This document shows, in pieces, positions 9,913-59,379 of a stretch of 64,000 nt of DNA. Location of the stretch: contig CAJOFJ010000009.1 of the NCBI GenBank assembly GCA_905233625.1, positions 14,492 through 78,491 on the forward strand, written 5' to 3'. The notes under the pieces are model-generated. The model ran no database searches, was not told the DNA's origin, and saw nothing but the letters and a program-made list of their open reading frames with translations. Within the stretch, counting starts at the first letter, position 1. Every line of letters starts with the position of its first letter. The position numbers and the translations under genes are program-made. The stretch comes from an uncultured Bacteroidales bacterium (GTDB lineage: Bacteria; Bacteroidota; Bacteroidia; Bacteroidales; WCHB1-69).

Positions 9913-9932
9913 GTTTTTCTTTAAAATCCATC

Positions 9933-11282: not shown

Positions 11283-11318
11283 AAAAAAAAAGGATGCCAA
11301 TCGGCATCCTTTTTTTTT
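11283..11318. terminator. Bidirectional rho-independent terminator between convergent rplI and the acyl-CoA synthetase gene
   Basis: A9-GGATGCC-aatc-GGCATCC-T9. Confidence 0.85.
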
Positions 11319-11322
11319 ATCC

Positions 11323-15911: not shown

Positions 15912-15965
15912 ATTAATCACGCTTCTTGTTTGCTGATATTCAGTGCCCGAAGGGGCGGGGTAGTG
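15912..15965 (+). repeat. 32-bp copy of the ftsW 3' end (15912-15943), fused to the 22-bp inverted-repeat arm GTGCCCGAAGGGGCGGGGTAGTG (15943-15965)
   Basis: attaatCacgcttcTtgtttgctgatattcag versus 20347-20378 attaatTacgcttcCtgtttgctgatattcag (30 of 32 identical). The arm is the inverse of 20185-20206. Confidence 0.85.
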
Positions 15966-15966
15966 G

Positions 15967-15992
15967 TAGAGACGTTTCATGAAACGTCTCTA
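15967..15992. terminator. Perfect 26-nt palindrome between convergent genes (hairpin terminator candidate)
   Basis: tagagacgtttc-at-gaaacgtctcta. Confidence 0.55.
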
Positions 15993-16004
15993 CTGGTTTA
16001 TCCT

Positions 16005-20127: not shown

Positions 20128-20351
20128 AAAAAAAATAATTAGCACATTAAAATAATTTGTACGGCTTCGCTGATATATTTACGTCACTACCCCGCCCTAC
20201 GGGCACCCCTTCTAACAGAAGGGGAATTAATGATTTGCTAATTCATTGGCACATTAATAATTAGCACATTAAAATATCATTTGCTAATTAACGAATTAAC
20301 TAATTTGCTAATTCATTAGCACATTAGCACATTGTCTCATTAGCACATTAA
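20128..20351. repeat. Mosaic intergenic repeat region: ATTAGCAC/TTTGCTAATT words plus an inverted copy of the CCCCTTCT..GAAGGGG-TGCCCG.AGGGCGGGG-TAGTGACGTAA hairpin module (20174-20224)
   Basis: The module at 20174-20224 is the reverse complement of 23434-23484, near-identical apart from loop differences. Word repeats run from 20226 to 20350. Confidence 0.8.
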
Positions 20352-21425
20352 TTACGCTTCCTGTTTGCTGATATTCAGCAGCACGCCGGTGGCGATGCCG
20401 GCGAAGAGCAGGGAGGCGCCGCCGCGACTGATGAAGGGCAGTGTCTGGCCGGTGGCGGGCAGGAGCCCGCAGTTAACGCCGATGTGCACCAAGCCCTGAC
20501 AGCAGAACCAGAATCCTATACCTACTGCCAATAGCATACCGAAGGGGCCTTCGCTTTGCTTGGCAATTTTCACGGAACGGATGAACAGCATCAGGTAACA
20601 GGCCAGAATAATGAGGCTGACGGTGACACCCAATTCCTCGGTAACGGTGGTAAAGACATAGTCCGTGTCTTTTTCGGGCAGTTTTTTGTTGATAACGCCT
20701 TGTCCTGGTCCCGCCGGCAGCAGCCCCGAACGGGCGATGGCCGCTTTCGACATGATCATCTGGTCACCATAGCCTTCGCTGTTATCGTTGGTGATATAAT
20801 AATGGCAGCGGTGGCGGAAAGTGCTGGAACGGCCTGAATTGGTGCCGAAAAGATAGATGGAACCGAAGAAGACCGCTACAAGGCAGAACAATAGCAAATG
20901 CTTGATTTTGACATTGCCGATAAACATGATGGCCAGGCTGGTGGCGAAAAAGATGATGGCGGTGGACATGTTGCTGATGGCCATGCCCCCCATGAAAAAC
21001 AGTACGACACAAAAGAGTCCTGACACCTCCTGCAGCGTCATCTCGGAACCATTGTTGATACGCACAGCCAAAAATTTGGCAATAAAAAAGATGGCTAAGA
21101 AACCGATAAAATAAAAGGTCTGGATTTCCATGGAGCCGATTTTGATACCACGGTGTTCGTCATTGCCGAACGCCAATGTGGCAATCAGCAGGATAGCGGC
21201 AGCAAGGAGGGAGAGAATTGCCAATCTCGATAAAGCCCTGTAATTGATTTTATAGGCAATAAACATTCCGATAAAACAAAGGGCGAGGTTGAATAGATGA
21301 TGAGTGAAAACAGAAGTCGATTTGGCTGAACTCAGCACCGCGAATATGGAAATCAGCGACAAGACGACAGTGATGATCAAAACAGCCTTGTCCCCTTTGA
21401 ATTTTATTTTCTCCTGCAGACTCAT
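20352..21425 (-). CDS. ftsW: SEDS family protein (FtsW/RodA homolog), short and divergent
   Basis: 357 aa at the dcw position. Conserved PEKDTDYVFTTVTEELG and GLLPATGQTLPFISRGGAS are present, but the R-W…Q-P-S-E…K loop motif reads HRGIKIGSMEIQTFYFIG. Confidence 0.7.
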   Translation of the reverse strand: MSLQEKIKFKGDKAVLIITVVLSLISIFAVLSSAKSTSVFTHHLFNLALCFIGMFIAYKINYRALSRLAILSLLAAAILLIATLAFGNDEHRGIKIGSMEIQTFYFIGFLAIFFIAKFLAVRINNGSEMTLQEVSGLFCVVLFFMGGMAISNMSTAIIFFATSLAIMFIGNVKIKHLLLFCLVAVFFGSIYLFGTNSGRSSTFRHRCHYYITNDNSEGYGDQMIMSKAAIARSGLLPAGPGQGVINKKLPEKDTDYVFTTVTEELGVTVSLIILACYLMLFIRSVKIAKQSEGPFGMLLAVGIGFWFCCQGLVHIGVNCGLLPATGQTLPFISRGGASLLFAGIATGVLLNISKQEA

Positions 21426-21429: not shown

Positions 21430-21504
21430 TATTTAATTAAGAACTAAGAATTAAGAGTTAAGAATAAATCGCAGTTCTTAATTCTTAGTTTTTAGTTCTT
21501 AGTT
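21430..21504. repeat. TTAAGAA heptamer array and its inverted copy (hairpin) between ftsW and the murD remnant
   Basis: Left arm ttaagaactaagaattaagagttaagaat (21436-21464). Right arm ttcttaattcttagtttttagttcttagtt (21475-21504). Confidence 0.8.
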
Positions 21505-22062
21505 TTATAACTGTGCTACTGCGTCTTTGAACTTGTCACCTCTCTCACGGTAGGTGCGGTACATGCCGAAGCTGGTGGTGCCTGGGGCGAAAAGGATGGC
21601 ATCGCCAGGGGCTGAGGCGTAATAGGCGGTACGCACAGCGTCTTCCATATTCATGCAGCAATCTACCTGTTTGTCAAGATTGGAAAAGAATTCCATGATT
21701 TCGGGGTTGTAAACGCCCAAAAGGATGATGTGTTTCACTTTCTCGTTGATAATGTCCACGAGGCTGTCGCTGATGCTTTCGCGATTCTCAATGCTCATGA
21801 TCCAGGTGGTGGGTTTGGACATGCTTTCCAAAGCGAACCACACGGCATTGATATTGGTGGAACGGGAGTCGTTGATGAAATCTTTGCCTTCGATGGTTTT
21901 GACCAGCTCCAGATTGTTGGCACTGCCCTCGAAGTCGGACATGGATTCGTTCAAGCTTTCGTTACGTGCGTGGAGCAGTCTGCCCGCTACGGCAGCGGCC
22001 ATGCTGCTGCGGTTGTCTGTGGTTGGGAATACGTTGTACCCGATGTTTTTGTTTGCTGCCAT
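21505..22062 (-). CDS. murD: MurD C-terminal-domain-only ORF (remnant of UDP-N-acetylmuramoylalanine--D-glutamate ligase; N-terminal and ATPase domains absent)
   Basis: 185 aa at the murD position, 21 nt after the mraY stop. GKDFINDSRSTNINAVWFALESM and RTYRERGDKFKDAV align to the MurD C-domain. There is no GxGxxG Rossmann motif and no GTNGKT P-loop, and several conserved C-domain residues are changed. Confidence 0.65.
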   Translation of the reverse strand: MAANKNIGYNVFPTTDNRSSMAAAVAGRLLHARNESLNESMSDFEGSANNLELVKTIEGKDFINDSRSTNINAVWFALESMSKPTTWIMSIENRESISDSLVDIINEKVKHIILLGVYNPEIMEFFSNLDKQVDCCMNMEDAVRTAYYASAPGDAILFAPGTTSFGMYRTYRERGDKFKDAVAQL

Positions 22063-22083
22063 ATCTTTTTATCTTTTAATATT

Positions 22084-23340
22084 TTATCTTACTTTGAGTG
22101 TTAATAATGAAACTATTGCCAGCATGATGCCGATGACGATGAAGCGCTGTACGATTTTGGCTTCATGCAGGCCTTTTTTCTGGAAATGATGATGGATAGG
22201 CGTCATCAGGAAGACACGCCGGCCTTCACCGTATTTTTTCTTGGTGTATTTGAAATAGCTTACTTGGATGATGACGGAGATGGACTCCATGAGATAAATG
22301 CCGCAGAGGATGGGAATCAGCAGTTCCTTTCTGATGATGATACACAATACGGCGATGATACCACCCAAACTCAGACTGCCGGTGTCACCCATGAATACCT
22401 GCGCGGGGAAGCAGTTCCACCAGTAGAAACCGATGCAGGCTCCAATCAGGGCAGCGATGAAGACTACCAATTCGCCGATGTTGGGGATGTACATGATGTT
22501 CAGATAATCGGCGAAAATGCTGTTGCCCGACAGATAGGCGAAAATGGCTATGCCAACGGCGATGACCGCCGCTGTTCCTGTTGCCAAGCCGTCCAACCCG
22601 TCGGTGAGATTGGCACCGTTGGAGACTGCCGCGATGATGAAAATGATGATGAGAATGTAAACCAGCGAAGACAGAATACCAGATTTGTCACCTATCCAGT
22701 TGGTGAGCCATGCGTAGTCAAACTCGTTGTTTTTGACAAATGGAATGGTGGTTTTGGTGGAGTGCTGAGCAGGACTGTTGCTGAAAGCGGTGGTGGTGCG
22801 GTTCACATTGTCCACTTTGAACACTTCCTCGGTTTTGACGAGCTTTTCGCTTTCCGTGCTTTTTTCTTTGATGACCACATCAGGATGGAAACACATCACC
22901 AAGCCTACGATGAGACCCAAAATAATTTGTCCTATGAGTTTCTTTTTTCCAGAAAGACCTTCTTTGTTTTTCTTGAATACTTTGATATAATCATCGATAA
23001 ATCCTAAGCATCCTAACCATATAGTGGTGAATATCATCAGGATAATGTAGATGTTGCTCAACTTGTTCAGCAACAAAACCGGTATTATGATGGAGGCGAT
23101 AATGATGATGCCGCCCATGGTGGGGGTGCCTTTTTTCTGCAGTTGTCCTTCCAAACCGAGGTCGCGAACGGTCTCGCCAATCTGGGCTTTTTGCAGTTTC
23201 TTGATAACGCTTTTGCCGATGATCAGAGAGATGAACAACGACAGCACAATGGCGGTGGCTGCTCTGAATGAGATGTATTGGAACATTCCCGCACCGGGGA
23301 AATTGTGTCCATGAAGCCAGTCGAAAAGGTAGTACAACAT
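22084..23340 (-). CDS. mraY: Phospho-N-acetylmuramoyl-pentapeptide transferase
   Basis: 418 aa. MLYYLFDWL…GTPTMGG…GFIDDYIKV…[10 protein letters not shown]…FMGDTGSL motifs, plus a Bacteroidota-type insertion. Confidence 0.95.
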
Positions 23341-23544
23341 AGGGATTAGTTTTTAGTGATTAGAGTTTAGTGTTTAGAGTTTACGGTTTAGTTGGGGGAG
23401 TTTAGTACTTCGTACTCAAGGGAAGTTTAAATTCCCCTTCTTCAAGAAGGGGTGGCCGAAGGCCGGGGTAGTGACGTAAGTGTAATTCAAAATTCAAAGT
23501 TCAAAATTCAAGAATGTAGGGACGCAATTTATTGCGTCCGTCTG
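23341..23544. repeat. 204-bp hairpin and word-repeat cluster inserted between murE and mraY
   Basis: TTAGNGN heptamers (23341-23395), gtac-ttcg-gtac, gggaa…ttccc, ccccttc-ttcaa-gaagggg, ggcc-gaa-ggcc, GGGGTAGTGACGTAAG, TTCAAAR heptamers (23484-23514) and ggacgcaat-tt-attgcgtcc. Confidence 0.8.
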
Positions 23545-29046: not shown

Positions 29047-29352
29047 TAGAAAATAATAATAGGTTTTCCACATTTTTATATTTTTGATTGAAAAAAGATG
29101 AAAAATAGATTTAACTTATTGAAAATCAGTGTGGAAAAAAATGGCAAAAATTTTTAGTCAATGTATAAATTTGTCTAAAATATTGATTTTCAGCATATAA
29201 ATTCCAATTTTTGTAATTAAATATAAAAAGCTGTAAATCAATAATATATAATAATAAAAAGGATGTAATTCCAAAATTTTCCACAGAAAGATGTTGATTT
29301 TCGGATAAATTTGGAAAAAAAAGGAAATTTTGGGAGAAAAAAGGAGTTATTA

Positions 29353-29376
29353 ACAAAAAAACGACCCGAAGGTCGT
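29353..29376 (-). terminator. Canonical rho-independent terminator on the minus strand (ACGACC-UUCG-GGUCGU followed by U8)
   Basis: Minus strand reads cgacgaccttcgggtcgttttttttg. No annotated minus-strand gene lies upstream of it for 1.5 kb. Confidence 0.65.
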
Positions 29377-29399
29377 CGTGCTTTCCACAGGGGAATGTT

Positions 29400-29477
29400 G
29401 ATTTAGGGATTAGGGGTCAGGGGTTAGGGGACAGGGGACAGAATAATGAATTCAAAGTTCAAGATTCAAAATTCAAC
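29400..29477 (+). repeat. TNAGGGG heptamer array (G-quadruplex motif 29406-29437) followed by a TTCAARR heptamer array
   Basis: ggg-atta-gggg-tca-gggg-tta-gggg-aca-gggg, then gaattcaaagttcaagattcaaaattcaac. Confidence 0.85.
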
Positions 29478-29717
29478 TGAAAAATTGCACAGATATTGAA
29501 TTCTGGATTCAAATCAGTATTAATGCGCCAATTACAGTCTGCTGAGCCAGATGCCGAGGAAACGGTCATAAACAATGTATTTGTCAGGCAATCTTTCATA
29601 TTTCAGACACTATTAATTTTATTTTCATTGCGTAAATTACGCTACGTAATTCCGTAATGAAAATGCACAAAAAATTATTGAAATGCAAAAAAAAAAAGTT
29701 TTTGACATATCAGTATT

Positions 29718-33825: not shown

Positions 33826-33833
33826 CAAAGGTA
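33826..33833 (-). promoter_or_regulatory. -7 box TACCTTTG (minus strand) for azlCD
   Basis: Plus strand reads caaaggta. A perfect palindrome agactgaaa/tttcagtct lies in the predicted 5' UTR (33806-33825). Confidence 0.45.
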
Positions 33834-33845: not shown

Positions 33846-33946
33846 ATGTGCTAATTAACAATGTGCTAATGTGCCAATGATTTTAGGGAATAGGGATTAG
33901 TGGATAGGGGTTGGTATTGAATTTTGAATTCTGAATTTTGAATTCT
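33846..33946. repeat. Mosaic word repeats: GTGCTAAT/GTGCCAATGA, TAGGGAAT/TAGGGATTAG, TTGAATT heptamers
   Basis: atgtgctaattaacaatgtgctaatgtgccaatga…tagggaatagggattagtggatagggg…ttgaattttgaattctgaattttgaattc. Confidence 0.8.
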
Positions 33947-33966
33947 ATAGAATGCTCCAATTGAAA

Positions 33967-34996: not shown

Positions 34997-35077
34997 GACT
35001 CCCCTCGAACACGTAGTGTGAGACTCCCCCTTCATGCGCAGCATGACTCCCCTTGAGCACGCAGTGCGAGACTCCCC
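34997..35077 (-). repeat. ACTCCCC-spaced mini-hairpin brick array (three to four units)
   Basis: gactcccc-tcgaacacgtagtgtgag-actccccc-ttcatgcgcagcatg-actcccc-ttgagcacgcagtgcgag-actcccc. Confidence 0.8.
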
Positions 35078-35165
35078 AAAAGTTAAATCTATTTGCTAAT
35101 TATCTTCAACATTCCCCTGTGTATAAATACTATCCTCTTATTGAAAATCGAGGATAATATCTTTT

Positions 35166-38273: not shown

Positions 38274-38903
38274 ATGGATTACCAAATCAAGAGTGTGAAA
38301 TTTCTCAAGTCCGAGGTAGATTACAAAAAATGCCCAGCGGACCGTTTACCTGAAGTTGCCTTTATTGGCCGTTCTAATGTGGGTAAGTCTTCATTAATCA
38401 ACATGTTAGCAAATCATAAGGATTTGGCAAAGACTTCGTCAAAACCCGGCAAAACCCAAACCATCAATCATTATGAGGTGGATAAACGTTGGTATCTGGT
38501 GGACCTGCCAGGCTATGGTTATGCTTCTATTTCTAAAACTATGCGTGAGAAATGGGAAAAGATGATAGAGAATTATCTCAAATTCCGTGAGAATCTCCAA
38601 ACGGTGTTTGTGTTGGTGGATATTCGACTGGAACCGCAAGCTATTGATATTGATTTTATTAATAAATTGGGAGAAATGGGTATACCTTTTTCCCTGGTTT
38701 TCACCAAGGCGGATAAAATCGGAAAAAACAAGGGAGCGCTCAGTGTACGCGCTTTCTGCCGCAAACTGATGGAAACCTGGGAGGACTTGCCCCCGTTTTT
38801 CGTTTGTTCTTCTGTGGATGGCAGAGGAAAAAACGATTTGCTGAATTATATCGAACAAATCAATGAATACTATTATAATCAACTAAAACAGGCTAAAGAA
38901 TGA
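38274..38903 (+). CDS. engB: Ribosome biogenesis GTP-binding protein YihA/EngB
   Basis: P-loop GRSNVGKSS, DLPGYG and TKADK motifs. Confidence 0.9.
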   Translation: MDYQIKSVKFLKSEVDYKKCPADRLPEVAFIGRSNVGKSSLINMLANHKDLAKTSSKPGKTQTINHYEVDKRWYLVDLPGYGYASISKTMREKWEKMIENYLKFRENLQTVFVLVDIRLEPQAIDIDFINKLGEMGIPFSLVFTKADKIGKNKGALSVRAFCRKLMETWEDLPPFFVCSSVDGRGKNDLLNYIEQINEYYYNQLKQAKE

Positions 38904-39352
38904 AAAATGTTTTTTGTTTTAACGTGCTGATTATTGGGTTGTTAGTGGCTATAGCGCTCACGATGTCCGCATGTATGACTGCTAAAAAGAAGGCTGAAAT
39001 GGCGCAGAATAAGCCGTTAGTGGATACGTATTGGGTATTAAAATCTGTTAAAGGTGAAGATATTCCCAAGTGTATTATTACTCCCAATATTGTATTTCAT
39101 GCCGACGGAAAATTCACAGGCAATCTGGGTTGTAATATCTTTTATGGTAATTATTATTCAGGCAAGAAGAAAATCAGAATGGAATTTGAGGGAGCGACCA
39201 AAAAGTTGTGTGAGAATATGAAAGTGGAGAAGCTGTTTCTTCAACAGCTGCATAGTGAGTTCAGGCAATACGAAATCGACAAAGATGTCCTGATCCTGAA
39301 AGACAAGGATGGAGAAGTGATGCGCTTCTTCGCCGGCGTAAAACCGGAATAG
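38900..39352 (+). CDS. META domain-containing lipoprotein (HslJ-like)
   Basis: Lipobox LTMSAC, W.L pattern and GNLGCN motif. Confidence 0.7.
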   Translation: MKNVFCFNVLIIGLLVAIALTMSACMTAKKKAEMAQNKPLVDTYWVLKSVKGEDIPKCIITPNIVFHADGKFTGNLGCNIFYGNYYSGKKKIRMEFEGATKKLCENMKVEKLFLQQLHSEFRQYEIDKDVLILKDKDGEVMRFFAGVKPE

Positions 39353-39497
39353 GGAATAGTGATTAGGGGATAGGGATTAGTGATTAGAATTTAGGGGGTA
39401 ATATGTTATTATGGACTACAATGTGGAATAGTTGTAACTAATTGTCTAACCACTAACCACTAATTCCTAATCACTATTCACTAATCACTAATCCCTA
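39350..39497. repeat. TAGGGAN/TAGTGAT heptamer array and its inverted copy, forming a long hairpin between convergent genes
   Basis: Left arm tagggaatagtgattaggggatagggattagtgattag. Right arm ctaatcactattcactaatcactaatcccta. The outermost TAG/cta triplets are the stop codons of the two flanking genes. Confidence 0.85.
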
Positions 39498-41090
39498 TAA
39501 AAGGTCGTGCGTGCTTTGCGACTCGTCACGATGTCCTTGGTAATCCAAAGAATAATGCAAACCGCGGCTTTCGTGGCGGTTCATGGCGTGACGGATAATC
39601 AGATAGCCGATATTGATCATATTACGCAATTCACAGATTTCCGGAATCAGAATGGATTTCTTGTACAGGTCTTCGGTCTCGCGGTATAGAATCTCGAGGC
39701 GGTCGAAGGCGCGCTGCAAGCGGACGTTGGAGCGGACAATGCCCACATAATTGCACATGATGGTCTGCAGTTCCTTGCGTGACTGGGTAATCAGCACCAT
39801 TTCCTCATTGAGTACAGTGCCTTCGGTGTTCCATTCGGGCACATCGTCGCAGAAATCTATGTTTTTGAAACGCTCCACGGCCTTGAGACAGGCACGGTGA
39901 GAGAAGACCAAAGCTTCGAGCAAAGAATTGGAAGCCAGTCGGTTGGCGCCATGCAAACCGGTAGAGGCGCATTCGCCCGAGCTGAACAGGTTGATAATAG
40001 AGCTTTCTCCCCATTCGTCCACTTTGATACCGCCGCAGGAATAGTGGGCTGCGGGTACCACGGGAATCATGTCCTTGGTGATGTCCACACCGATGCTCAG
40101 ACACTTGGCGTAGATATTGGGAAAATGGTTGAAAATTTCTGTTTTGCTAATATGTGTCGCGTCCAGATAGACATGGTCGCAGCCTTTCTGCTTCATCTCA
40201 TTGTCGATGGCGCGGGCCACAATGTCGCGGGGTGCCAGGGAGCCTCGCTTGTCGTATTTGCTCATAAACTCCACGCCATTTTCATCTTTCAGGATGGCGC
40301 CAGCGCCACGCAGGGCTTCGGTAATCAGGAAAGAGGGCGACTCTTTGGGGTTGTAAAGAGAAGTGGGGTGGAACTGGACGAATTCCATGCCGTTGACTGC
40401 ACCCTTGGCGCGATACACCATGGCGATGCCGTCGCCGGTGGCGATGGTGGGGTTGGTGGTGTTGCCATACACGGTGCCGATGCCGCCTGTGCACATCATG
40501 GTGATACGCGACAGGATGGTCTGTACCTTGTTGGTGTTGGGGTTATACACGTAGGCCCCGTAGCAGGTGATGTCGGGTGTGCGGCGGCTCACCTCTATGC
40601 CCAGATGGTGCTGGGTGATGATTTCGATGGCCAAGTGATTTTCCAGGATTTCGATATTGGGATGTTGCTTGGCGGCGATAATCAGTTTTTCCTCGATTTC
40701 CAGACCTGTGATGTCCTTGTGGTGCAGCACGCGGAATTCGGAGTGGCCGCCTTCTTTGGCCAGGGCAAACTTGCCGCTTTTGGTCTTGTCGAAATCCACG
40801 CCCCATTCCACCAGTTCCATTACACGGGCGGTGGATTCGCGGATGGTGAGTTCCACGATGTGGCGGTCTGACAGCTCGTCGCCGGCAATCATCGTGTCTT
40901 GGATATGTTTCTCATAGGTATCGGGTTGATAGACCACGGCGGCGATACCGCCCTGGGCGTATTTGGTGGAGGTGTCATCCACCTTGGCTTTGGTAACCAT
41001 GCAAACTTTGCCGTAGTTGGCGGCTTTCAAGGCGAAGCATAGGCCTGCTACACCTGATCCGATAACCAGAAAATCAACTTTTTTTCTCAT
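39495..41090 (-). CDS. nadB: L-aspartate oxidase
   Basis: The start is set at the ATG at 41090 (MRKKVDFLVIGSGVAGL, FAD-binding GxGxxG), 26 nt downstream of a -7 box. Fumarate reductase/succinate dehydrogenase flavoprotein-like. Confidence 0.9.
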   Translation of the reverse strand: MRKKVDFLVIGSGVAGLCFALKAANYGKVCMVTKAKVDDTSTKYAQGGIAAVVYQPDTYEKHIQDTMIAGDELSDRHIVELTIRESTARVMELVEWGVDFDKTKSGKFALAKEGGHSEFRVLHHKDITGLEIEEKLIIAAKQHPNIEILENHLAIEIITQHHLGIEVSRRTPDITCYGAYVYNPNTNKVQTILSRITMMCTGGIGTVYGNTTNPTIATGDGIAMVYRAKGAVNGMEFVQFHPTSLYNPKESPSFLITEALRGAGAILKDENGVEFMSKYDKRGSLAPRDIVARAIDNEMKQKGCDHVYLDATHISKTEIFNHFPNIYAKCLSIGVDITKDMIPVVPAAHYSCGGIKVDEWGESSIINLFSSGECASTGLHGANRLASNSLLEALVFSHRACLKAVERFKNIDFCDDVPEWNTEGTVLNEEMVLITQSRKELQTIMCNYVGIVRSNVRLQRAFDRLEILYRETEDLYKKSILIPEICELRNMINIGYLIIRHAMNRHESRGLHYSLDYQGHRDESQSTHDLL

Positions 41091-41115
41091 AGTGGCAATT
41101 ACTAAATTAAGTATG

Positions 41116-41123
41116 CAAAAATA
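41116..41123 (-). promoter_or_regulatory. -7 box TATTTTTG (minus strand) for nadB
   Basis: Plus strand reads caaaaata. Confidence 0.45.
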
Positions 41124-41219
41124 AGAAAAAACAAGATATGCACGGCATACCATTATCTTAGGGTATTCTTATGTCCTGAAAAAAATTTCTCAACCCTTAT
41201 TCAACTGAAAAAAAAAATG

Positions 41220-41227
41220 TATTTTTG
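41220..41227 (+). promoter_or_regulatory. -7 box TATTTTTG for topA
   Basis: 60 nt upstream of the ATG at 41287. Confidence 0.45.
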
Positions 41228-41286
41228 CCGCCGCAAATTTTTTGAATGTACAATATAATATATACTATTTATAGGAGCTATAAAAA

Positions 41287-43779
41287 ATGAGTAAGGATTT
41301 GATAATTGTGGAGTCTCCGGCCAAAGCCAAGACCATCCAAAAGTTTATCGGTAAGGATTTTACGGTTGTTTCCAGCAAGGGACATGTCCGTGACCTGCCC
41401 CAGAAAGATTTGGGTATCGACATTCCCAAGGGTTTCCAACCCAAATATGAGATTTTGGACGAAAAAAAGAAATTAATCCAAGATATCAAGAAATTGGCGA
41501 ATGAGGCAGACACTGTCTGGCTTGCTACCGATGATGACCGCGAGGGCGAGGCTATCTCGTGGCACCTGATGGAAGTGGCTGATATCGCCCCAGCCAAGAC
41601 CAAGCGTATCGTCTTTCACGAAATCACTAAGTCTGCCATTGAAGCAGCTTTGGCTAATCCGCGTCAGCTGGATGTGGATTTGGTGAACGCCCAGCAGGCC
41701 CGCCGTATTCTGGACCGCCTTGTGGGTTTCGAACTGTCTCCTGTGCTTTGGCGCAAAGTGAAACCACAACTTTCTGCTGGCCGTGTGCAGTCGGTAGCTG
41801 TCAAGCTGATTGTGGAGAGAGAACATGAAATCAAGGATTTCAAAGTGACTTCTTCTTACAGAATCACAGGAAATTTCGCCTCAGAAAAGGATAATGGCAA
41901 TGAATTTGAAGCTGAACTGGACACCCGTTTCGCCGACAAAGATAAAACTTTGGCTTTCTTGGAAGATTGCAAAACCGCCACGTATTCCATTTCGGCGGTG
42001 GAGAAAAATCCTGGCAAGAAAGTGCCGGCAGCACCTTTCACCACCTCCACTTTGCAGCAGGAAGCTTCTCGTAAATTGGGCTTCTCGGTGAGCAAAACCA
42101 TGGTTATCGCACAACAACTGTATGAGCAAGGTTACATCACTTACATGAGAACCGACTCGGTCAATTTGTCGGAGTTTGCCATTCAAGGTGCCAAGGAGGA
42201 AATCGTCAAGCAGTATGGCGAGGAGTATTCACATCCTCGTCGTTATGCTACCAAGATCAAAGGAGCTCAAGAGGCTCACGAAGCTATCCGTCCTACTTCC
42301 ATGAGCAACCATACGATTCCTGGTGATACTTTCGCCAAGCGTTTGTATGAGCTGATTTGGAAACGTACCATCGCTTCGCAGATGAGCGACGCCAAGACAG
42401 AGAAAACGGTCATCACTATTCCAATGTCCAACCGTCCTGAAAAATTCGTTGTGACCGGTGAGGTGATATTGTTCCACGGCTTCTTGAAAGTATATATTGA
42501 GTCGAAGGATGAGGAAGATGAGGAAGTAAAGGGTTGGTTGCCGAATCTGTCTGTAGGAGAGACGGTTAAGGCTTCTGAAATCATTGCTACGCAGAAATAT
42601 ACCCAACCGCCGGTGCGCTACACCGAGGCTAGTTTGGTGAAAAAACTGGAAGAGTTGGGCATTGGCCGTCCTTCAACATTTGCGCCCACTATCTCCACTA
42701 TCCAGAAACGTGAGTATGTGGTCAAAGAGACCCGTCCTGGCTCCGAAAGAGAATATGTGCAGCTGAAACTGAAAAACGGCAGTGTGCACGAGTCGGTGAA
42801 AAAAGAGAAATACGGTTTCGAGAAAGATAAGATTTTCCCGACAGATATCGGTATTGTGGTGAATGACTACTTGCAGGACAATTTCCAGGAGATTATGGAT
42901 TATGGATTCACGGCCAATGTGGAGAAGGAATTTGATGAGATTGCTGAGGGAAAGATGAAATGGCAGGAAATGATGAACGAGTTCTATGGCGATTTTCATC
43001 ATTCTATAGAAAATGCCATCACCTATTCCACCAAGGCCAGTGGCGAGCGTCTGTTGGGTGCTGACCCGAAAACCAACGCCAACGTTTATGCCAAGTTGGG
43101 TAAGTACGGTCCCATGGTACAGATTGGCGAGAATTATGAAGACGAGAAACCTCGTTACGCCCGTATGAAGAAAACCCAGTCTATTGAAAGCATCACGCTT
43201 GAGGAAGCGCTTGACTTGTTCAAGCTGCCCAAAACTTTGGGAGAATACGAGGGTGAGCCTTTGGTGATTGGTATCGGTCGTTTCGGTCCATACGTGAAAT
43301 ATCATAATAATTTTGTGTCAATTCCCAAGACAGAAGAACCTACAGATATTAGCTATGAGAGAGCTGTGGAGTTGATCGAGTTGAAGAAAAAAGGTGACCA
43401 GGACCATGCACCTCGCATATTGGGTGAGCATAATGGCAAAGAAGTGTCCGTTGCAGCTGGCAGATATGGCCCCTATCTGAAATATGACGGCAAAAATATT
43501 ACTCTGGACAAGGGTACAGTGGTGGCGGAAATGACCTTGGAGCAAGCCGCTGCAATAATAGATGGTGCAGCTACCCGTAATGTGTTGGTGGATTTCAAGG
43601 AGAATGAAAACATCAAGGTGCTGAATGGCCGCTATGGTGCTTATATTTCAGATGGTACCAACAATTATAAAATTCCAAAAGGCCGTATCGCTGAAAATTT
43701 GACATACGAGGATTGTATGGAGATTATCAATAATACCACGCCGACCGCCAAGAAAACATCATACAGAAGGAAAAAATAA
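41287..43779 (+). CDS. topA: DNA topoisomerase I (type IA)
   Basis: 830 aa. Toprim N-terminus LIIVESPAKAKTI, the active-site region ITYMRTDS, and C-terminal repeats. Confidence 0.95.
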   Translation: MSKDLIIVESPAKAKTIQKFIGKDFTVVSSKGHVRDLPQKDLGIDIPKGFQPKYEILDEKKKLIQDIKKLANEADTVWLATDDDREGEAISWHLMEVADIAPAKTKRIVFHEITKSAIEAALANPRQLDVDLVNAQQARRILDRLVGFELSPVLWRKVKPQLSAGRVQSVAVKLIVEREHEIKDFKVTSSYRITGNFASEKDNGNEFEAELDTRFADKDKTLAFLEDCKTATYSISAVEKNPGKKVPAAPFTTSTLQQEASRKLGFSVSKTMVIAQQLYEQGYITYMRTDSVNLSEFAIQGAKEEIVKQYGEEYSHPRRYATKIKGAQEAHEAIRPTSMSNHTIPGDTFAKRLYELIWKRTIASQMSDAKTEKTVITIPMSNRPEKFVVTGEVILFHGFLKVYIESKDEEDEEVKGWLPNLSVGETVKASEIIATQKYTQPPVRYTEASLVKKLEELGIGRPSTFAPTISTIQKREYVVKETRPGSEREYVQLKLKNGSVHESVKKEKYGFEKDKIFPTDIGIVVNDYLQDNFQEIMDYGFTANVEKEFDEIAEGKMKWQEMMNEFYGDFHHSIENAITYSTKASGERLLGADPKTNANVYAKLGKYGPMVQIGENYEDEKPRYARMKKTQSIESITLEEALDLFKLPKTLGEYEGEPLVIGIGRFGPYVKYHNNFVSIPKTEEPTDISYERAVELIELKKKGDQDHAPRILGEHNGKEVSVAAGRYGPYLKYDGKNITLDKGTVVAEMTLEQAAAIIDGAATRNVLVDFKENENIKVLNGRYGAYISDGTNNYKIPKGRIAENLTYEDCMEIINNTTPTAKKTSYRRKK

Positions 43780-48177: not shown

Positions 48178-48185
48178 CAAAGATA
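48178..48185 (-). promoter_or_regulatory. -7 box TATCTTTG (minus strand) for glnS
   Basis: Plus strand reads caaagata. The context TGTATCTTTGCAAGTTA is mirrored at 48385-48401 on the plus strand. Confidence 0.5.
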
Positions 48186-48196: not shown

Positions 48197-48297
48197 AATT
48201 AGCAAATTAGTTAATTAGCAAATTAGCAAATGATTTTAATGTGCCAATGAGATAATGTGCTAATGAAATTAAGAATTAAAAATTAAGAGTTAAGAAT
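48197..48297. repeat. Mosaic word repeats: ATTAGCAA, GTGCCAATGA/GTGCTAATGA, TTAAGAA heptamers
   Basis: aattagcaaattagttaattagcaaattagcaaatga…gtgccaatgagataatgtgctaatga…aattaagaattaaaaattaagagttaagaatg. Confidence 0.8.
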
Positions 48298-48386
48298 GTT
48301 GATGTAAATTTTTTGGAAGAATGTAGGGCTGTCACATTGTGGCAGCCGTGCGAAAAAATGTACAGGGGTATGTTGTGAAATTATTG

Positions 48387-50197: not shown

Positions 50198-52183
50198 ATG
50201 AAAAAGACATTTTTACTACTTATCTGTCTGCTGGTGTGTTGCGTCGCTGCATTCTCCCAAAGCGTAACCCTTACCTTTACCGCCAAAGATGTAGCCAACC
50301 ACTATGTGCAACTCAACAGGGTTACTATTACCAACCTGACCAAAAGCTGGCAGGAGACGATATATTGGCCTGACACCACGCTAACCATGCAGAATGGCAC
50401 AGGAATCGGTGATGTAGAGACGCACGGCCGTGCGTCTCTACAATTGTCCCAAAATAACCCCAATCCTTTCACCGGCACCACCGAGGTGAGCCTTACGGTA
50501 GAGGAAGAGGATGAGGTGATGTTGGATATTGCGGATGTAAACGGAAAAACCGTAGGGACGCATCGCATGCGTCCGCAGGCGGGTATCCACCAATTCCGCG
50601 TTACCTTGTCTACCTCTGGCACATACATTATGACCGCCCGCCAGAACGGGCAGACTTCTTCCATCAAGATGGTATGCAACGGTGGCGGGGATGGCAATAG
50701 GATTGAATATACGGGAAACGGCGGTGATGCATCGCATGCGTCCGCAACCCAATCCAAAAACGGTCCCAAATATACCACCACCCACCCTTTCAATTTCGGG
50801 GATCAGATGGAATATGTGGGCTATGCCACCATTAATGGCAGCGAGGTAGAAAGCCAGCGCATCTCACAGCCACAAGGTGCTTCCCAGACCTTTACTTTGC
50901 AGTTTGCCGAAATAGATGGCTCGGTCATTACCGTGATAACCAATCTTGCTACTGAAATATCCTATTACTCAGCCATTTGCGGTGGCAATGTTATTTATGA
51001 CGGGGAAGAAAATATAATAGTGCGAGGAATTTGTTGGAACACATTGCATAATCCCACTGCCAACCATAATCATATTAGTTGTGGTAGTGGTGTGGGCAGT
51101 TATAACTGTAATATCTATTCTCTAAATCCTGGTACTACTTATTATGTGCGTGCTTACGCAACGAGCGTATTAGGAACTGTATATGGTAATGAGGTGGAAT
51201 TTGCCACAATGCCATTGACTATACCAACAGTATCCACTTCTGCCGTGACCGACATTACTCCATTTTATGCAAATAGTGGTGGGACGGTGATAGATGATGG
51301 GGGGTATTTTAACGAAACAATCCGTGGCGTATGCTGGAGCACCTCGCAAAACCCAACAATAAGTAACAGCCACACTACTAATGGTAGTGGTACGGGCATT
51401 TTTACCAGTCAACTGACAGGACTAAATCCTGGCACCACCTATTATGTGCGTGCATATGCCACTAACAGTGCAGGTACATCATATGGAGAACAACAGATAT
51501 TTACTACCTATACACTGATTCCTTGTCCAGGTGCTGCCACTGTGACCGATATTGACAATAACACATACAACACGGTGCAAATCGGCAACCAGTGCTGGAT
51601 GAAGGAAAACTTGCGGACGACCCGTTATTCCAATGGCACAAGCATTGCTTTGGGGAGTAGCACAAGCACCACAACGGCTTATCGTTATTATCCCAATGAT
51701 GACCAATCCAATGTATCCACCTACGGTTATTTGTACAATTGGAAGGCGGTGATGGGGAACTCATCCTCCAGTAGTGCCAATCCCAGTGGGGTGCAAGGCA
51801 TTTGTCCTACTGGTTGGCATGTTCCGAGTGATGCGGAGTGGACGCAGTTGACCGATTATGTGAGCGGTCAGAGCCAGTATGTGTGCGGTGTTAGTAACAG
51901 CCATATAGCCAAGGCCTTGGCATCTACAACGGGATGGCAAAGCAGTTCCCAAATTTGTGCAGTGGGCAATAATCCAAATGCCAATAATGCGACTGGTTTC
52001 TCGGTCCTTCCCTCTGAAGGAGGAGGTTATGGCGACTACGCCTACTTTTGGAGTGCTACGGAGGTTGGTTCTTTTTCCGCATACTGTATGGGTCTTGCTT
52101 ACGATATGCCTGATGTATACAGAGGAGGGGACTTAGAAATATACAAGTACCTCGGTTTCTCAGTTCGTTGTCTTCGCGATTAG
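50198..52183 (+). CDS. Secreted multidomain protein: internal T9SS-CTD-like domain, two Fn3-like repeats, C-terminal FISUMP (Fibrobacter succinogenes major paralogous) domain
   Basis: 661 aa with a signal peptide. LSQNNPNPFTGTTEVSL…GTYIMTARQNGQTSSIKMV resembles a Por secretion tail. There are two ~95-aa repeats (ICWNT…GTTYYVRAYAT). The C-terminus has QCWMKENL…YGYLYNW…CPTGWHVPSDAEW…FSVRCLRD. Confidence 0.75.
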   Translation: MKKTFLLLICLLVCCVAAFSQSVTLTFTAKDVANHYVQLNRVTITNLTKSWQETIYWPDTTLTMQNGTGIGDVETHGRASLQLSQNNPNPFTGTTEVSLTVEEEDEVMLDIADVNGKTVGTHRMRPQAGIHQFRVTLSTSGTYIMTARQNGQTSSIKMVCNGGGDGNRIEYTGNGGDASHASATQSKNGPKYTTTHPFNFGDQMEYVGYATINGSEVESQRISQPQGASQTFTLQFAEIDGSVITVITNLATEISYYSAICGGNVIYDGEENIIVRGICWNTLHNPTANHNHISCGSGVGSYNCNIYSLNPGTTYYVRAYATSVLGTVYGNEVEFATMPLTIPTVSTSAVTDITPFYANSGGTVIDDGGYFNETIRGVCWSTSQNPTISNSHTTNGSGTGIFTSQLTGLNPGTTYYVRAYATNSAGTSYGEQQIFTTYTLIPCPGAATVTDIDNNTYNTVQIGNQCWMKENLRTTRYSNGTSIALGSSTSTTTAYRYYPNDDQSNVSTYGYLYNWKAVMGNSSSSSANPSGVQGICPTGWHVPSDAEWTQLTDYVSGQSQYVCGVSNSHIAKALASTTGWQSSSQICAVGNNPNANNATGFSVLPSEGGGYGDYAYFWSATEVGSFSAYCMGLAYDMPDVYRGGDLEIYKYLGFSVRCLRD

Positions 52184-52541
52184 AGCAGACCGCACAAGTG
52201 CGAAGCGCCCAGGCGGTCTGAAAGGAAATTCCCGCCGTAAGGCGGGCGAAGATACCTATAGGTGTTTTGTAGGTGTCAGCCGAATTTGTGTTGGCGTGCT
52301 GAAAGCACACCATCCTATTAACCCCTAACAAGGCCGCAGGCCGCAGTTTGGGGTGATGAGGTGTAAGGTAGAATACAGCGTGCCGAAGGTATGCAACTAT
52401 TGTGTCATTGTAGCGTGCCTTTGGCACGCAGCTGTGAGGGCTGTGCTTACTACCCCACACTGCACGACTTCGTCGTTTAGTGCGGGGTTAATAGAATATT
52501 GTGCCTTCGGCACATTTTGCAGGCAGCAATACTATTTATTC
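52184..52541. repeat. 358-bp ORF-free cluster of at least 8 GC-rich hairpins enclosed by an 11-bp long-range stem
   Basis: cagaccgc…gcggtctg, cccgcc-gtaa-ggcggg, gtgct-gaa-agcac, gcgtgcc-ttt-ggcacgc, acgac-ttc-gtcgt and tgtgcc-ttc-ggcaca. ctattaacccc (52315-52325) pairs with ggggttaatag (52484-52494). Confidence 0.7.
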
Positions 52542-54320: not shown

Positions 54321-54341
54321 GATTTTTGAGGTAAGAATATT

Positions 54342-54455
54342 GATTCGTTTATACGTTAAGGCGTTAAGGCGTTAAGGCGTTAAGGCGATTTTTCTCGTCT
54401 TGACGAACGCACATAGTGCGTGACTTCACGCCTCCACGTCTTAACGTTTCTACGA
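54342..54455. repeat. Brick-type element: GATTCGTTTATACGTT leader (shared with 13425), CGTTAAGG x4 tandem octamer, imperfect inverted right arm
   Basis: gattcgtttatacgttaaggcgttaaggcgttaaggcgttaaggcg…cacgcctccacgtcttaacg. It fills the gap between uvrC and the DUF1015 gene. Confidence 0.8.
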
Positions 54456-54468
54456 CAAAATCAATTCT

Positions 54469-55774: not shown

Positions 55775-55782
55775 CAAAGATA
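55775..55782 (-). promoter_or_regulatory. -7 box TATCTTTG (minus strand) for the DUF1015 gene
   Basis: Plus strand reads caaagata, 35 nt from the start codon. Confidence 0.45.
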
Positions 55783-55790: not shown

Positions 55791-55920
55791 TTTAATGTGC
55801 CAATGAGTTAATATGCTAATGTGCCAATGAATAATTCAAAATTCAAAGTTCAAGATTCAGAATATGTAACATATTGTCTATTTTTGAATTCTGAATTTTG
55901 AATTCTGAATTTTGAATTTC
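55791..55920. repeat. GTGCCAATGA words plus a TTCAAAR heptamer array and its inverted copy (hairpin) in a divergent promoter region
   Basis: Left arm aattcaaaattcaaagttcaagattcagaat (55834-55863). Right arm tttttgaattctgaattttgaattctgaattttgaattt (55881-55919). Confidence 0.8.
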
Positions 55921-55953
55921 AATAGAAGAATCCCATGTAACCGAAAATTTTTG

Positions 55954-59170: not shown

Positions 59171-59342
59171 TAGGGATTAGGTGTTAGGGATCAGGGGTTA
59201 GTCATTAAGAATTCAAAATTCAAAGTTCAAAATTCATTATCCTATAATCTTGTAATCATAAAAACTCCCCTCGAGCACAAAGTGCGAGACTCCCCTTTGG
59301 ATGCGTGCATCCAACTCCCCTCGAACGAAGTGAGACTCCCCC
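59171..59342. repeat. Composite repeat inserted between moxR and the DUF58 gene: TAGGGAT heptamers, TTCAAAR heptamers, ATCCTATAATCTTGTAATCA leader, ACTCCCC bricks
   Basis: All four repeat vocabularies occur in series. 59237-59305 is a near copy of 9933-10005. Confidence 0.85.
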
Positions 59343-59379
59343 AACCCTTCTAACCATACAAAACCACTAAGCTTAAAAC

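Follow-up and report, generated by a model that had tools for sequence, protein, structure and literature searches.

The convergent META-domain gene (38900–39352, plus strand) and nadB (39495–41153, minus strand) are separated by a spacer that the arms of a long hairpin fill entirely, both arms ending exactly at the stop codons. The left arm (39350–39398) consists of seven degenerate heptamers in the order TAGGGAA, TAGTGAT, TAGGGGA, TAGGGAT, TAGTGAT, TAGAATT and TAGGGGG, and its first triplet is the TAG stop codon of the META-domain gene (39350–39352). After a non-repetitive loop (39399–39445), which separates the arms, the right arm (39446–39497) carries 7.4 copies of CTAATCA-type heptamers, the reverse complement of the left-arm words, and its last triplet, CTA (39495–39497), is the stop codon of nadB. 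An earlier note on this DNA had read the outermost triplets of the hairpin as these two stop codons, and this was correct. The region 39350–39497 folded at −51 kcal/mol (z −5.4 against shuffles) and its minus strand at −46.6 kcal/mol (z −6.6). The stem of about 45 bp is AT-rich, with no T-run after either arm. A terminator scan of 38800–41400 did not flag the spacer as an intrinsic terminator, the hairpin being without a U-tract, and a sigma-70 promoter scan of the same interval found nothing at the spacer. Canonical terminators do occur in this organism, for example at 11285–11322. The hairpin most likely would form the 3′-end structure of both the META and the nadB mRNAs, where it may act as a partial terminator or as an exonuclease block.

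The window, which is the whole stretch of 64 kb analysed here, contained 25 arrays of period 7 or 8 in 7.9 kb of intergenic DNA as determined by TRF, against a mean of 0.19 and a maximum of 3 in dinucleotide shuffles (n = 100). No such array lay fully inside coding DNA, and two overlapped a gene end (22062–22090 and 39346–39387). The units are contiguous and without spacers, TRF copy numbers range from 3 to 7.4 per array, and the median unit match of 84% shows that the arrays are degenerate. At least eight words coexist within the 64 kb, AT-only words among them; AATTCAA and the TTAGGGA type each recur in five regions and the AATTAGCA octamer in four to five. The array coordinates listed in the earlier note all hold by TRF and by inspection of the intergenic sequence, and TRF bore out the small recurring vocabulary and the 7/8-nt periods. 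The figure of at least 12 intergenic regions has to be lowered, as 11 had arrays of at least three units and the twelfth (35092–35104) retains only some 1.5 units. The idea that modules always have four units found no support, since copy numbers fall off from the threshold of TRF detection onwards. The sequences were assembled from short metagenomic reads, and a number of contigs stop near repeats, so that the arrays could have been artefacts of assembly or have arisen by chance in AT-rich DNA of low complexity. This explanation is already refuted and we give it practically no credit: the 142-nt META/nadB spacer was identical in three independent assemblies (including Logan ERR3525319 and ENA ERZ28573570), the shuffles produced next to none of the arrays, and array position is conserved across many species.

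The arrays are present inside the dcw cluster, in the moxR-DUF58 pair and in divergent promoter regions, as had been stated. Between truncated murD and ftsW, 4.4 copies of AATTAAG and their inverted copy form a hairpin (21436–21504; arms 21436–21464 and 21475–21504) that abuts the murD stop codon (21505–21507), and the same word pair was found in locus L076 (18614–18697). An octamer zone of AATTAGCA and AATGTGCT in both orientations (20128–20350) starts one base past the ftsW stop codon (20352–20354). TTAGNGN heptamers (6.7 copies, 23341–23395) lie flush with the longest-ORF start of mraY (23340). The AATTCAA block at 23484–23514, with the unit order AATTCAA, AATTCAA, AGTTCAA, AATTCAA, matches those at 55827 and 59204 with 88–91% identity. 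Upstream of mraZ lies a long region in which TTAGGGG/CAGGGGA heptamers precede an AATTCAA block (29400–29477; TTAGNGA type 29400–29442, AATTCAA 29449–29477). Three blocks adjoin one another at 33846–33945, namely AATGTGCY octamers (at 33846), TAGGGAW heptamers of the TTAGNGA type (33886–33915) and TTGAATT heptamers of the AATTCAA type (33917–33945). The region 48197–48297 combines 4.4 copies of AATTAGCA, 3.6 of AATGTGCY and 4.4 of AATTAAG (48269–48297). At 55791–55919, AATGTGCY octamers are followed by an AATTCAA/TTGAATT inverted pair, situated between two divergent promoters, whose arms, 55834–55863 and 55881–55919, form a hairpin. Directly after the moxR stop codon (59168–59170), TAGGGAT heptamers of the TTAGNGA type (59171–59209) lead into an AATTCAA block (59210–59236), and the copy number of this composite was the same in two other assemblies (L163 and L169). 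A divergent region carries three copies of AATTAGCA and then five of GAGCTRT (9853–9912; GAGCTRT 9877–9912). Two other kinds of element were seen beside the arrays. A related family of arrays with a 25-nt unit, which the earlier note did not list, adjoins the heptamer blocks and shares a conserved leader (9920–9995 and 59226–59301), and REP-like elements of GTAGGG and a stem-loop adjoin the arrays but are separate from them.

Hairpin-forming inverted doublets occur at four loci of the window (21436–21504, 39350–39497, 54340–54468 and 55834–55919). The long imperfect hairpins that had been proposed are real, with z values from −5.4 to −6.6 against shuffles at the three loci folded for this purpose; besides the META/nadB spacer, 21430–21510 gave −18.6 kcal/mol (z −5.9) and 55828–55925 gave −32 kcal/mol (z −6.1). 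The four copies of CGTTAAGG at 54354–54385, all units 100% identical, had been listed as a plain array, but they are also the left arm of the long hairpin 54340–54468, where they pair with the words CCTCCACG and TCTTAACG (z −7.4). Single arrays fold poorly (33880–33950, −5.2 kcal/mol; 29400–29520, z −0.5). A scan of the window at Rfam gathering thresholds returned tRNA-Ser only and no known RNA family over the arrays.

The octamer blocks of the TGCTAATT / RGCACATT type are a functionally distinct subset. They end 10–11 nt before TAnnTTTG at four independent loci (P about 1e-6; this and the other p-values are approximate, because the gene calls were ORF heuristics and the loci are phylogenetically related), and unlike the heptamers they are phase-locked to the −7 boxes, which were recognised with the Bacteroidetes promoter consensus of PMC7366714. 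The −7 boxes TATCTTTG (48178–48185, minus strand, with TTTG at −33) and that at 55775–55782 (minus strand) are each 11 nt from their octamers, and TACCTTTG (33826–33833, minus strand) lies beside the blocks at 33846–33945. It suggests that these octamer blocks may form the −33 region and the upstream DNA of predicted promoters of the sigma-ABfr type. A change in unit number would leave the −33/−7 spacing intact, because the blocks lie upstream of −33. The arrays differ from phase-variable contingency SSRs in their median unit match of 84% and in a copy number that is fixed in three assemblies.

The window and 80 related species loci made up a comparative set of 1.41 Mb. In this set, period 7 was represented by 101 intergenic and 23 coding arrays and period 8 by 56 and 11, and periods 6, 9 and 10 by 8 and 22, 8 and 17, and 2 and 3, respectively. 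Thus 157 of the 191 period-7/8 arrays lay in the 9.7% of the sequence that is intergenic (binomial p 2e-123), a density 43-fold higher than in coding DNA, and the notion of an equal frequency in coding DNA is refuted. The words change between species, while the 7/8 period is kept. The closest relatives had 3.17 arrays per 10 kb, relatives at 78–85% nadB identity had 0.9, and those at 72% or less had 0.04.

A metagenome DNA-pattern scan with a 24-nt anchor from the META 3′ end gave zero matches, and relatives in metagenomes were found by a protein-seeded scan in place of the anchor. The comparison of orthologous intergenic regions, which had been proposed to reveal insertions, showed the inverted heptamer pair at the META/nadB junction in eight relatives, with differing words and lengths, and its absence in one close relative, which has no spacer and whose stop codons stand back to back as TAA-TTA. 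All eight orthologous spacers folded into long hairpins as judged by per-sequence fold z-scores (z −2.2 to −6.7), which were used since spacers that differ in words and unit number do not align reliably. The inverted pair used the words TAGGGAT, CAGTGGT/CTGACCA, CAGGTGT/CTGTAAC or AGGTAGC/CTGATAC depending on the relative, and the spacers that carry it were 55 to more than 230 nt long. Within one lineage, which keeps the same words and loop, the right arm had about 4, 5, 12 or more than 20 units. Inverted pairs were also found in co-directional and divergent regions. Hairpins as terminators of convergent genes were therefore rejected as a general rule, and an RNA role cannot be general, because the divergent regions are probably untranscribed.

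The earlier note held that every unit carries a stop codon and that successive units close all three frames. The second point stands, as each of the 23 window arrays closes three frames on one strand or more, 11 of them on both. The first has an exception: in its pure form the AATGTGCC unit is free of stops on both strands, and the stops in AATGTGCC arrays come from variant units. In the units, TAG/CTA was enriched 3.0-fold, TAA/TTA 2.2-fold and the TTAG core 6.9-fold; TGA was not enriched (1.13-fold), and ATA, GTA and ATG were depleted (0.6–0.7-fold). About half of the words carry stop trinucleotides because their core is TTAG or TTAA. Stops on both strands were found in 46% of heptamers and 70% of octamers, compared with 16–18% of background k-mers. 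Arrays abutted a stop codon in 17 cases against 6.6 expected (p about 1e-4) and a start codon in 6 against 5.0, which refutes a random distribution relative to gene ends, and examples from many species show that they are commonly in register with the adjoining stop codon.

An adaptive explanation of this composition would be that arrays were selected for putting stops into all three frames right behind genes, in many cases on both strands, so as to end read-through or frameshifted translation and insulate tightly packed neighbours. The specific enrichment of TAG and TAA rather than of other TA-containing triplets is consistent with it, as are the depletion of ATG, the both-strand stops at about 3–4 times the background frequency, the closure of three frames throughout the window and the position at stop codons (2.6 times expectation, often in register). 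However, stop-bearing words show no strand bias (69 of 97 sense, 72 of 97 antisense) and are equally enriched in divergent, untranslated promoter regions, TGA is left out, arrays of more than 20 units exist although three would do, and a close relative manages with back-to-back stops and no array. AATTCAA blocks, moreover, leave every frame open on one strand, and they are found both along and against the direction of transcription. We consider selection for this purpose distinctly unlikely, and the three-frame translational stop function implied by the earlier note is at best weakly supported. Seeding of arrays purely from stop codons was likewise insufficient, given that the antisense strand and divergent regions are equally stop-rich, and it is an incomplete explanation because TGA, though used as a stop codon about as often as TAG, is not enriched.

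Blocks at separate loci share the order of their variant units, with identities of 94% over 31 nt, 88–91% over 33 nt and 100% over 27 nt, and a 76-nt composite block is present at more than one locus. Because of this common unit order, the blocks appear from their sequence to be dispersed copies. They could be bricks similar to MITEs or REPINs, in which a transposase from another part of the genome moves a block or an inverted pair in trans. If this enzyme preferred TTAG/TTAA targets, as it may, insertions would often fall on stop codons. The shared unit order argues for such movement, together with short-loop inverted pairs that resemble the REPIN architecture, the GTAGGG stem-loop elements beside the arrays, the lineage-specific array density and a moxR-DUF58 spacer that has been swapped whole between lineages with an identical MoxR protein. 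Nevertheless, the block edges, which are sharp and have unrelated flanks, showed neither terminal inverted repeats nor target-site duplications, and a Pfam scan of 30 window ORFs detected no transposase, RAYT or reverse transcriptase. Moreover, the gradual drift of words at one orthologous site, together with unit numbers that vary inside a lineage, points to evolution in place and not to repeated insertion, and the META/nadB arms end exactly at both stops with no original spacer DNA left. We therefore regard mobile bricks as unlikely. Viral contigs scanned for AATTCAAAATTCAAAGTTCAA gave four matches, which were AATTCAA arrays in unrelated AT-rich contexts and do not inform on a vector.

REP units are palindromic and share a conserved GTAG head, and RAYT transposases move them; their hairpins, many of which are found at 3′ ends or separate convergent genes, stabilise the upstream mRNA and serve as binding sites for gyrase or IHF. 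REP/REPIN/BIME mosaics in Enterobacteria and Pseudomonas were reportedly described by Bertels and Rainey in 2011 and by Gilson et al. Our arrays share with them short intergenic modules in mosaics, inverted pairs as hairpins and a frequent location at 3′ ends or between convergent genes, but they are non-palindromic tandem repeats, and RAYT is missing from the Pfam-scanned window ORFs. CRISPR repeats are 24–48 nt long, with unique spacers between them and cas genes nearby, whereas the units here are contiguous without spacers and the Pfam-scanned window ORFs contained no cas domains. The arrays are thus neither CRISPR nor classical REP, in agreement with the earlier note.

The record of intergenic heptamer repeats goes back to 1990 for cyanobacteria; Xanthomonas, Burkholderia and Beggiatoaceae were added later, and to our knowledge the repeats have no accepted mechanism or function to date. 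The blocks described here, which account for much of the DNA between genes in this uncultured rumen Bacteroidales bacterium, are a lineage-specific case of this known phenomenon and not a new system, as they show the head-to-tail 7/8-nt units, the confinement to non-coding DNA, the recurring words and the locus variation of the STRR/LSSR class. According to Mrazek (2007, as cited in PMC4679880), long simple sequence repeats have units of 5–11 nt, heptamers are their commonest unit in bacteria, and polymerase slippage was proposed as the cause of heptamer repeats. Rehm et al. (2015, PMC4692102) listed as heptameric repeats the cyanobacterial STRR, GGGAATC of Xanthomonas and GGGGA(C/T)T of Nostoc. 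Common to those repeats and ours are head-to-tail 7-nt units that are about 90% intergenic, one word at many loci, a position 0–50 bp from or overlapping the stop codon of the upstream gene, inverted pairs, and conserved loci at which close relatives differ in length and sequence. The resemblance extends to the words (GGGAATC and GGGGATT in Xanthomonas/Nostoc; GGGAATA, GGGATTA and GGGGTTA here). The present arrays differ in their rumen Bacteroidales host, in having at least eight words in 64 kb, in their strong promoter-tied 8-nt class and in AT-only words that, unlike those of the STRR/Xanthomonas/Nostoc type, cannot form G-quadruplexes. In the literature found on those repeats, there was no report of both-strand TAG/TAA enrichment with a TTAG core, of stop register or of a shared variant-unit order.

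MacGregor (2015, PMC4679880) reported TAACTGA direct repeats in Beggiatoaceae, Cyanobacteria and five Bacteroidetes, which also are intergenic, stop-bearing heptamer arrays with a sporadic phylogenetic distribution. In Gramella and Aequorivita, TAACTGA forms long arrays beside other heptamer repeats, and close relatives are without them; the word AACTGAT of our locus L028 is a rotation of TAACTGA. In 'Maribeggiatoa', translational control was suggested because the repeats directly precede start codons and always have one orientation, whereas the arrays here favour stops and follow no orientation rule. Klein et al. (2015, PMC4596501) described the BrickBuilt MITE of Porphyromonas gingivalis, which the earlier note had named as the nearest analogue. 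Its tandem unit measures 23 nt, and the array is flanked by leader and tail segments that can reach about 300 nt and have terminal inverted repeats at their ends. BrickBuilt shares with our arrays a Bacteroidales host, strictly intergenic location, spacerless tandem units, variable copy number and promoter elements. The analogy fails for the heptamer and octamer blocks, whose units are 7 or 8 nt and which are without leader, tail or terminal inverted repeats, but it suits the neighbouring 25-nt arrays with their conserved leader, which match BrickBuilt better. The heptameric intergenic repeats of cyanobacteria, Xanthomonas and Beggiatoaceae are closer analogues.

The arrays might also be binding sites, on DNA or RNA, for a lineage-specific factor that binds heptamers cooperatively and regulates neighbour genes, such as a nucleoid protein, a cold-shock-type protein binding one heptamer per monomer, or gyrase, as with the BIMEs of E. 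coli. Binding of heptamers by cold-shock proteins was discussed for the TAACTGA repeats (PMC4679880), and a period kept across species while words change, a fairly uniform block size of about four units and octamer blocks at fixed phase to promoters would fit this idea. However, the words are so diverse in a single genome, and at one site in closely related species, that a sequence-specific binder would have to co-evolve with many words; the copy-number decay resembles that of a slippage product, and no candidate protein was identified. We hold this explanation to be very improbable.

Taken together, the data suggest, with a probability of roughly 0.55, that the arrays are lineage-specific, slippage-prone and block-copied repeats of the STRR/LSSR type that have been filtered by selection, with some copies co-opted as 3′-end hairpins or promoter-upstream modules. 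Each module spans about 30 nt and is a degenerate tandem array in which a 7- or 8-nt word is usually repeated 3–7 times. Replication slippage would make and resize the arrays, whole blocks would then be copied between intergenic regions, and an occasional inverted duplication of a block would give a long imperfect hairpin. Purifying selection would keep the blocks in non-coding DNA and filter the words, so that only frame-closing, ATG-poor words could sit flush against genes; the arrays would therefore often start at, and in register with, a stop codon. Any slippage still going on must be slow, because the arrays are degenerate and three assemblies agree in their copy number. The preference for periods 7 and 8 over 5, 10 or 11 is not accounted for by slippage alone, and neither is the arrival of whole blocks at new loci. 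A bolder idea, to which we assign little probability, is that dedicated lineage-specific machinery, either transposase-like or a templated-synthesis enzyme, copies TTAG-core cassettes of about 30 nt into TAA/TAG sites, where they are kept as full-stop modules acting on two strands and in three frames. If this were true, the cassettes would let genes sit back to back and would represent a novel class of mobile element that has a translational function built in and lacks both terminal inverted repeats and target-site duplications.

This clade of rumen Bacteroidales offers hundreds of metagenome-assembled relatives at graded distances, which makes it an unusually good comparative system for heptamer repeats. 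It shows that the period is conserved rather than the word, that the words are rich in TAG/TAA on both strands and often in stop register, and that blocks have been copied from locus to locus. One class of octamers appears to belong to the Bacteroidetes promoter architecture, to which it would contribute the −33 TTTG. These findings extend a known phenomenon and provide testable leads on how compact bacterial genomes generate and recycle non-coding DNA.

In the 7.9 kb of intergenic DNA in the window, where gene calls are ORF heuristics, 25 arrays of period 7 or 8 were found against 0.19 expected from dinucleotide shuffles. None lies inside coding DNA of the window, and 2 overlap a gene end. 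With TRF and inspection of the complete intergenic sequence we recovered every array that the earlier note had listed besides the one at 39350-39497, and counted 11 regions with arrays instead of the at least 12 it had claimed. Stops do fall in all three frames, as it had proposed: 23/23 listed arrays close three frames on at least one strand, and 11/23 on both. Its claim that each unit carries a stop was too broad, as a pure AATGTGCC unit has none on either strand. The spacer between the META-domain gene and nadB was present in identical form in the Logan ERR3525319 assembly and in ENA ERZ28573570, and an artefact of assembly or of chance is hardly credible as the origin of the arrays.

Uncultured Bacteroidales MAGs are the source of the nadB homologues and of 160 retrieved loci; they derive from the rumen of yak, sheep, goat, buffalo and cattle, from horse faeces and from similar habitats. 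A clade census of the window and 80 species-representative loci (1.41 Mb, 9.7% intergenic by a greedy ORF call) counted non-redundant arrays of at least 3 copies. Intergenic and coding counts were 2 and 4 for period 5, 8 and 22 for period 6, 101 and 23 for period 7, 56 and 11 for period 8, 8 and 17 for period 9, 2 and 3 for period 10, and 1 and 0 for period 11; therefore, periods 7 and 8 are specifically favoured. It was suggested earlier that unit lengths are never a multiple of 3; the 7- and 8-nt periods indeed dominate, but avoidance of multiples of 3 is insufficient to explain this pattern. The arrays are not equally frequent in coding DNA (1.15 arrays/kb intergenic vs 0.027/kb coding). 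Species differ in their words (AAACCTT, AATCTCT, AACCAAT, TAGCCAT, TAACCTAC and others) and retain the period. Density relative to the window species was 3.17/10 kb in the closest loci, 0.9/10 kb at 78-85% nadB identity and 0.04/10 kb at 72% identity or less. The units are degenerate (median unit match 84%). Copy numbers tail off above the detection threshold (49 arrays have 3 copies, 63 have 4 and 19 have 5), with longer arrays rarer still (6 copies, 12; 7, 8; 8, 4); TRF thresholds cut off short arrays.

Set against random 7- and 8-mers drawn from intergenic DNA outside the arrays, the units are rich in stop codons. Heptamer units carry a stop on at least one strand in 92% of cases (background 57%) and on both strands in 46% (16%); the octamer values are 84% (61%) and 70% (18%). 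Among trinucleotide classes, TAG/CTA (3.0-fold) and TAA/TTA (2.2-fold) show the strongest enrichment; TGA is neutral, and ATA, GTA and ATG occur less often than in the background. Enrichment of the core tetranucleotide TTAG/CTAA reaches 6.9-fold. Arrays were also biased toward stop codons, 17 abutting one (distance -3 to 0) against 6.6 expected when arrays were placed randomly within their own spacer (p ~1e-4, approximate because the loci are related to each other), with no such bias for start codons (6 vs 5.0 expected). In many species the stop of the gene is the opening triplet of the first unit, and in-register examples include TAA-CCTAC-TAA-CCTAC, TAG-CCAT-TAG-CTGT, TAG-CAGT-TAG-TAGT and TAA-ACCT-TAA-ACCC. 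Such enrichment could be read as an adaptive three-frame stop cassette. However, stop-bearing words showed no strand preference (sense 69/97, antisense 72/97), divergent promoter regions are equally enriched in them, and TGA gains nothing in the units though it is a gene stop about as often as TAG (187 vs 211 genes). This explanation is rather unlikely.

The META-domain gene (38900-39352, plus strand, Pfam PF03724) and nadB (39495-41153, minus strand, FAD_binding_2 and Succ_DH_flav_C) converge with 142 nt between their stop codons. About 7 degenerate heptamers (TAGGGAA TAGTGAT TAGGGGA ...) form the left part of the spacer, 47 nt without repeats the centre, and about 7 heptamers of the complementary word (CTAATCA ...) the right part; the first TAG is the stop of the META-domain gene and the last CTA that of nadB. 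As RNA, these 148 nt fold into a single long imperfect hairpin (plus strand -51 kcal/mol, z -5.4; minus strand -46.6 kcal/mol, z -6.6), and as DNA the fold has -26 kcal/mol (z -6.0). All relatives with the spacer have an inverted pair of heptamer arrays at this junction, and 8/8 folded orthologues form a long hairpin (z -2.2 to -6.7), while the words change (TAGGGAT; CAGTGGT/CTGACCA; CAGGTGT/CTGTAAC; AGGTAGC/CTGATAC) and the length ranges from 55 to >230 nt. In one lineage with the same words and loop, unit number in the right arm is about 4, 5, 12 or >20 and the left arm is steady at about 6; a second lineage has CTGATAC once or three times. In one relative (L084/L085) the spacer is absent and the stops stand back to back as TAA-TTA, the nadB stop being at the same codon position as in array-bearing species. 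We conclude that the arrays themselves supply the DNA of the spacer, that they are dispensable, and that the arm lengths are not kept equal.

The hairpin at 39350-39497 may provide both convergent mRNAs with a 3'-end structure, because a hairpin is kept at the junction despite word turnover; this role is weakened because it has no U-tract and one relative lacks the spacer. At 11285-11322, convergent genes have a textbook bidirectional intrinsic terminator between them (A-run, GC stem GGATGCC...GGCATCC, T-run), so ordinary terminators are in use elsewhere in this organism. Convergent, co-directional and divergent regions all contain inverted pairs; therefore, hairpin formation is at least partly structural or mutational and not only a matter of RNA function.

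Arrays at different loci have the order of variant units in common: identity is 94% over 31 nt between 21435-21465 and 48267-48297, 88-91% over 33 nt among the blocks at 23478, 55827 and 59204, and 95% over 22 nt between 9854 and 48197, and the 27 nt of 33918-33944 match 55892-55918 exactly. The blocks appear to have been copied between loci and not to have been born independently. Mobilisation in trans as MITE or REPIN-like elements overlaps the copying step of the explanation we favour and is possible, if on the unlikely side; neither terminal inverted repeats nor target-site duplications are visible at the sharp block edges, whose flanks are unrelated, and no transposase was found among the Pfam-scanned ORFs of the window. 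In the moxR-DUF58 spacer, unit numbers are equal in three assemblies from different samples, with point differences only. Between 59171-59379 and the related loci L164-L168 and L170, an identical 331-aa MoxR is followed by two unrelated spacers of 209 and 170 nt (TAGGGAT + AATTCAA + 25-mer vs CGTGGAG/CGTTAAG-type), with no nucleotide stretch in common from stop codon to start codon. The arrays are stable over short time, and their turnover is complete over longer time.

Bacteroidetes promoters have a -7 box TAnnTTTG and a -33 TTTG (PMC7366714), and promoters of this type are visible in intergenic regions of the window. Octamer blocks (strand spelling TGCTAATT or RGCACATT) end 10-11 nt before the -7 box at 4 independent loci, and likewise in orthologues of these; the loci are 48197, 55794, that seen in the orthologues of 33860, and, in the related locus L076, the promoter of nadB. 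Chance would give 0.18 hits (P ~1e-6, counting independent loci only). The last TTTG or TTG of the block precedes the -7 box by 17 nt and thereby falls on position -33 of the Bacteroides consensus. Octamer units added or removed upstream would leave the -33/-7 spacing unchanged, so these are not classical phase-variation repeats. By their sequence placement, the octamers appear to be a functional class apart from the heptamers. That the arrays serve as protein-binding arrays is very unlikely in our estimation.

A second repeat family, with a unit of about 25 nt in which an 8-nt word (GAGACTCC or CCACGTCT type) is joined to a 17-nt mini-hairpin, forms direct arrays at 9957-10086, 34997-35081 and 59263-59345 and inverted forms at 6266-6440, 13437-13614 and 54340-54468; CGTTAAGG x4 is one arm of the last hairpin (z -7.4). 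A conserved leader, ATCCTRTAATCTTGTAATC with an A-run, precedes the direct arrays 9957-10086 and 59263-59345 (9920-9995 vs 59226-59301, 88% identity over 76 nt). REP-like elements, (T)GTAGGG with a perfect stem-loop (e.g. GTAGGGACGCAATTTATTGCGTCC), at 23516-23544 and 48321-48352 adjoin heptamer blocks, as in the relatives L004, L034 and L076, and two similar copies (50547-50577, 50716-50746) lie inside coding ORF 50198-52183. On the minus strand at 29350-29400, upstream of mraZ, ATCAACATTCCCCTGTGGAAAGC precedes a canonical UUCG-loop terminator (ACGACC-TTCG-GGTCGT + T7); a related box is at 35115-35135, and the element, a candidate small RNA or leader by sequence, is kept in L002, L076 and L082, always directly after a repeat block. 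GC-rich hairpin clusters with GAAG, TTCG or AAAG loops (52184-52541, 15940-16004, 20185-20235, 23420-23480), include six hairpins in one 358-nt convergent spacer; CCCGAAGGGGCGGGGTAGTG-type elements also recur. The murD gene (21505-22062, minus strand) encodes only 185 aa, covering positions 273-440 of the 441-position MurD model and lacking the central and N-terminal domains; two independent assemblies have the gene in this truncated form, and repeat arrays lie on either side of it. The dcw cluster ends after ftsW, followed by a gene for a 1355-aa T9SS cargo protein. The region 1-4687 has no long ORF listed yet is coding-like, with internal 45-nt repeats at 2557, 3331 and 4561, and probably belongs to a very large gene for a repetitive surface protein, encoded on the minus strand and running off the window.

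Nearest to these arrays are the heptameric intergenic repeats known from Xanthomonas (GGGAATC) and Nostoc (GGGGA[C/T]T). Those repeats are 89-93% intergenic, sit 0-50 bp from the upstream stop codon or overlap it, have inverted pairs among them and differ from one close relative to another (PMC4692102). At 29403-29441, TTAGGGATTAGGGGTCAGGGGTTAGGGGACAGGGGACAG has five G3-4 tracts with 3-4 nt loops, a canonical G-quadruplex motif as described for those heptamers; the AT-only words here cannot form one. Cyanobacterial STRRs and TAACTGA repeats (PMC4679880) are further analogues, together with the long SSRs of Mrazek, whose commonest unit is the heptamer (cited in PMC4679880). BrickBuilt, which the earlier note had named as the nearest analogue, consists of a 23-nt unit together with TIR-bearing leader and tail segments (PMC4596501) and does not match the heptamers; the 25-nt arrays of the window do resemble this minisatellite MITE.

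We estimate a probability of roughly 0.55 that the arrays are a lineage-specific, slippage-prone, block-copied intergenic repeat family of the STRR/long-SSR kind. Slippage, block copying and inversion would be the mutational steps, because of the copy-number variation, shared variant order and inverted pairs, and the enrichment statistics suggest a selective filter that would favour non-coding location and frame-closing, ATG-poor words flush against genes. This is an already known kind of repeat, for which the TTAG core, stops on both strands, stop-codon register, block copying and -33 octamers are newly quantified here.
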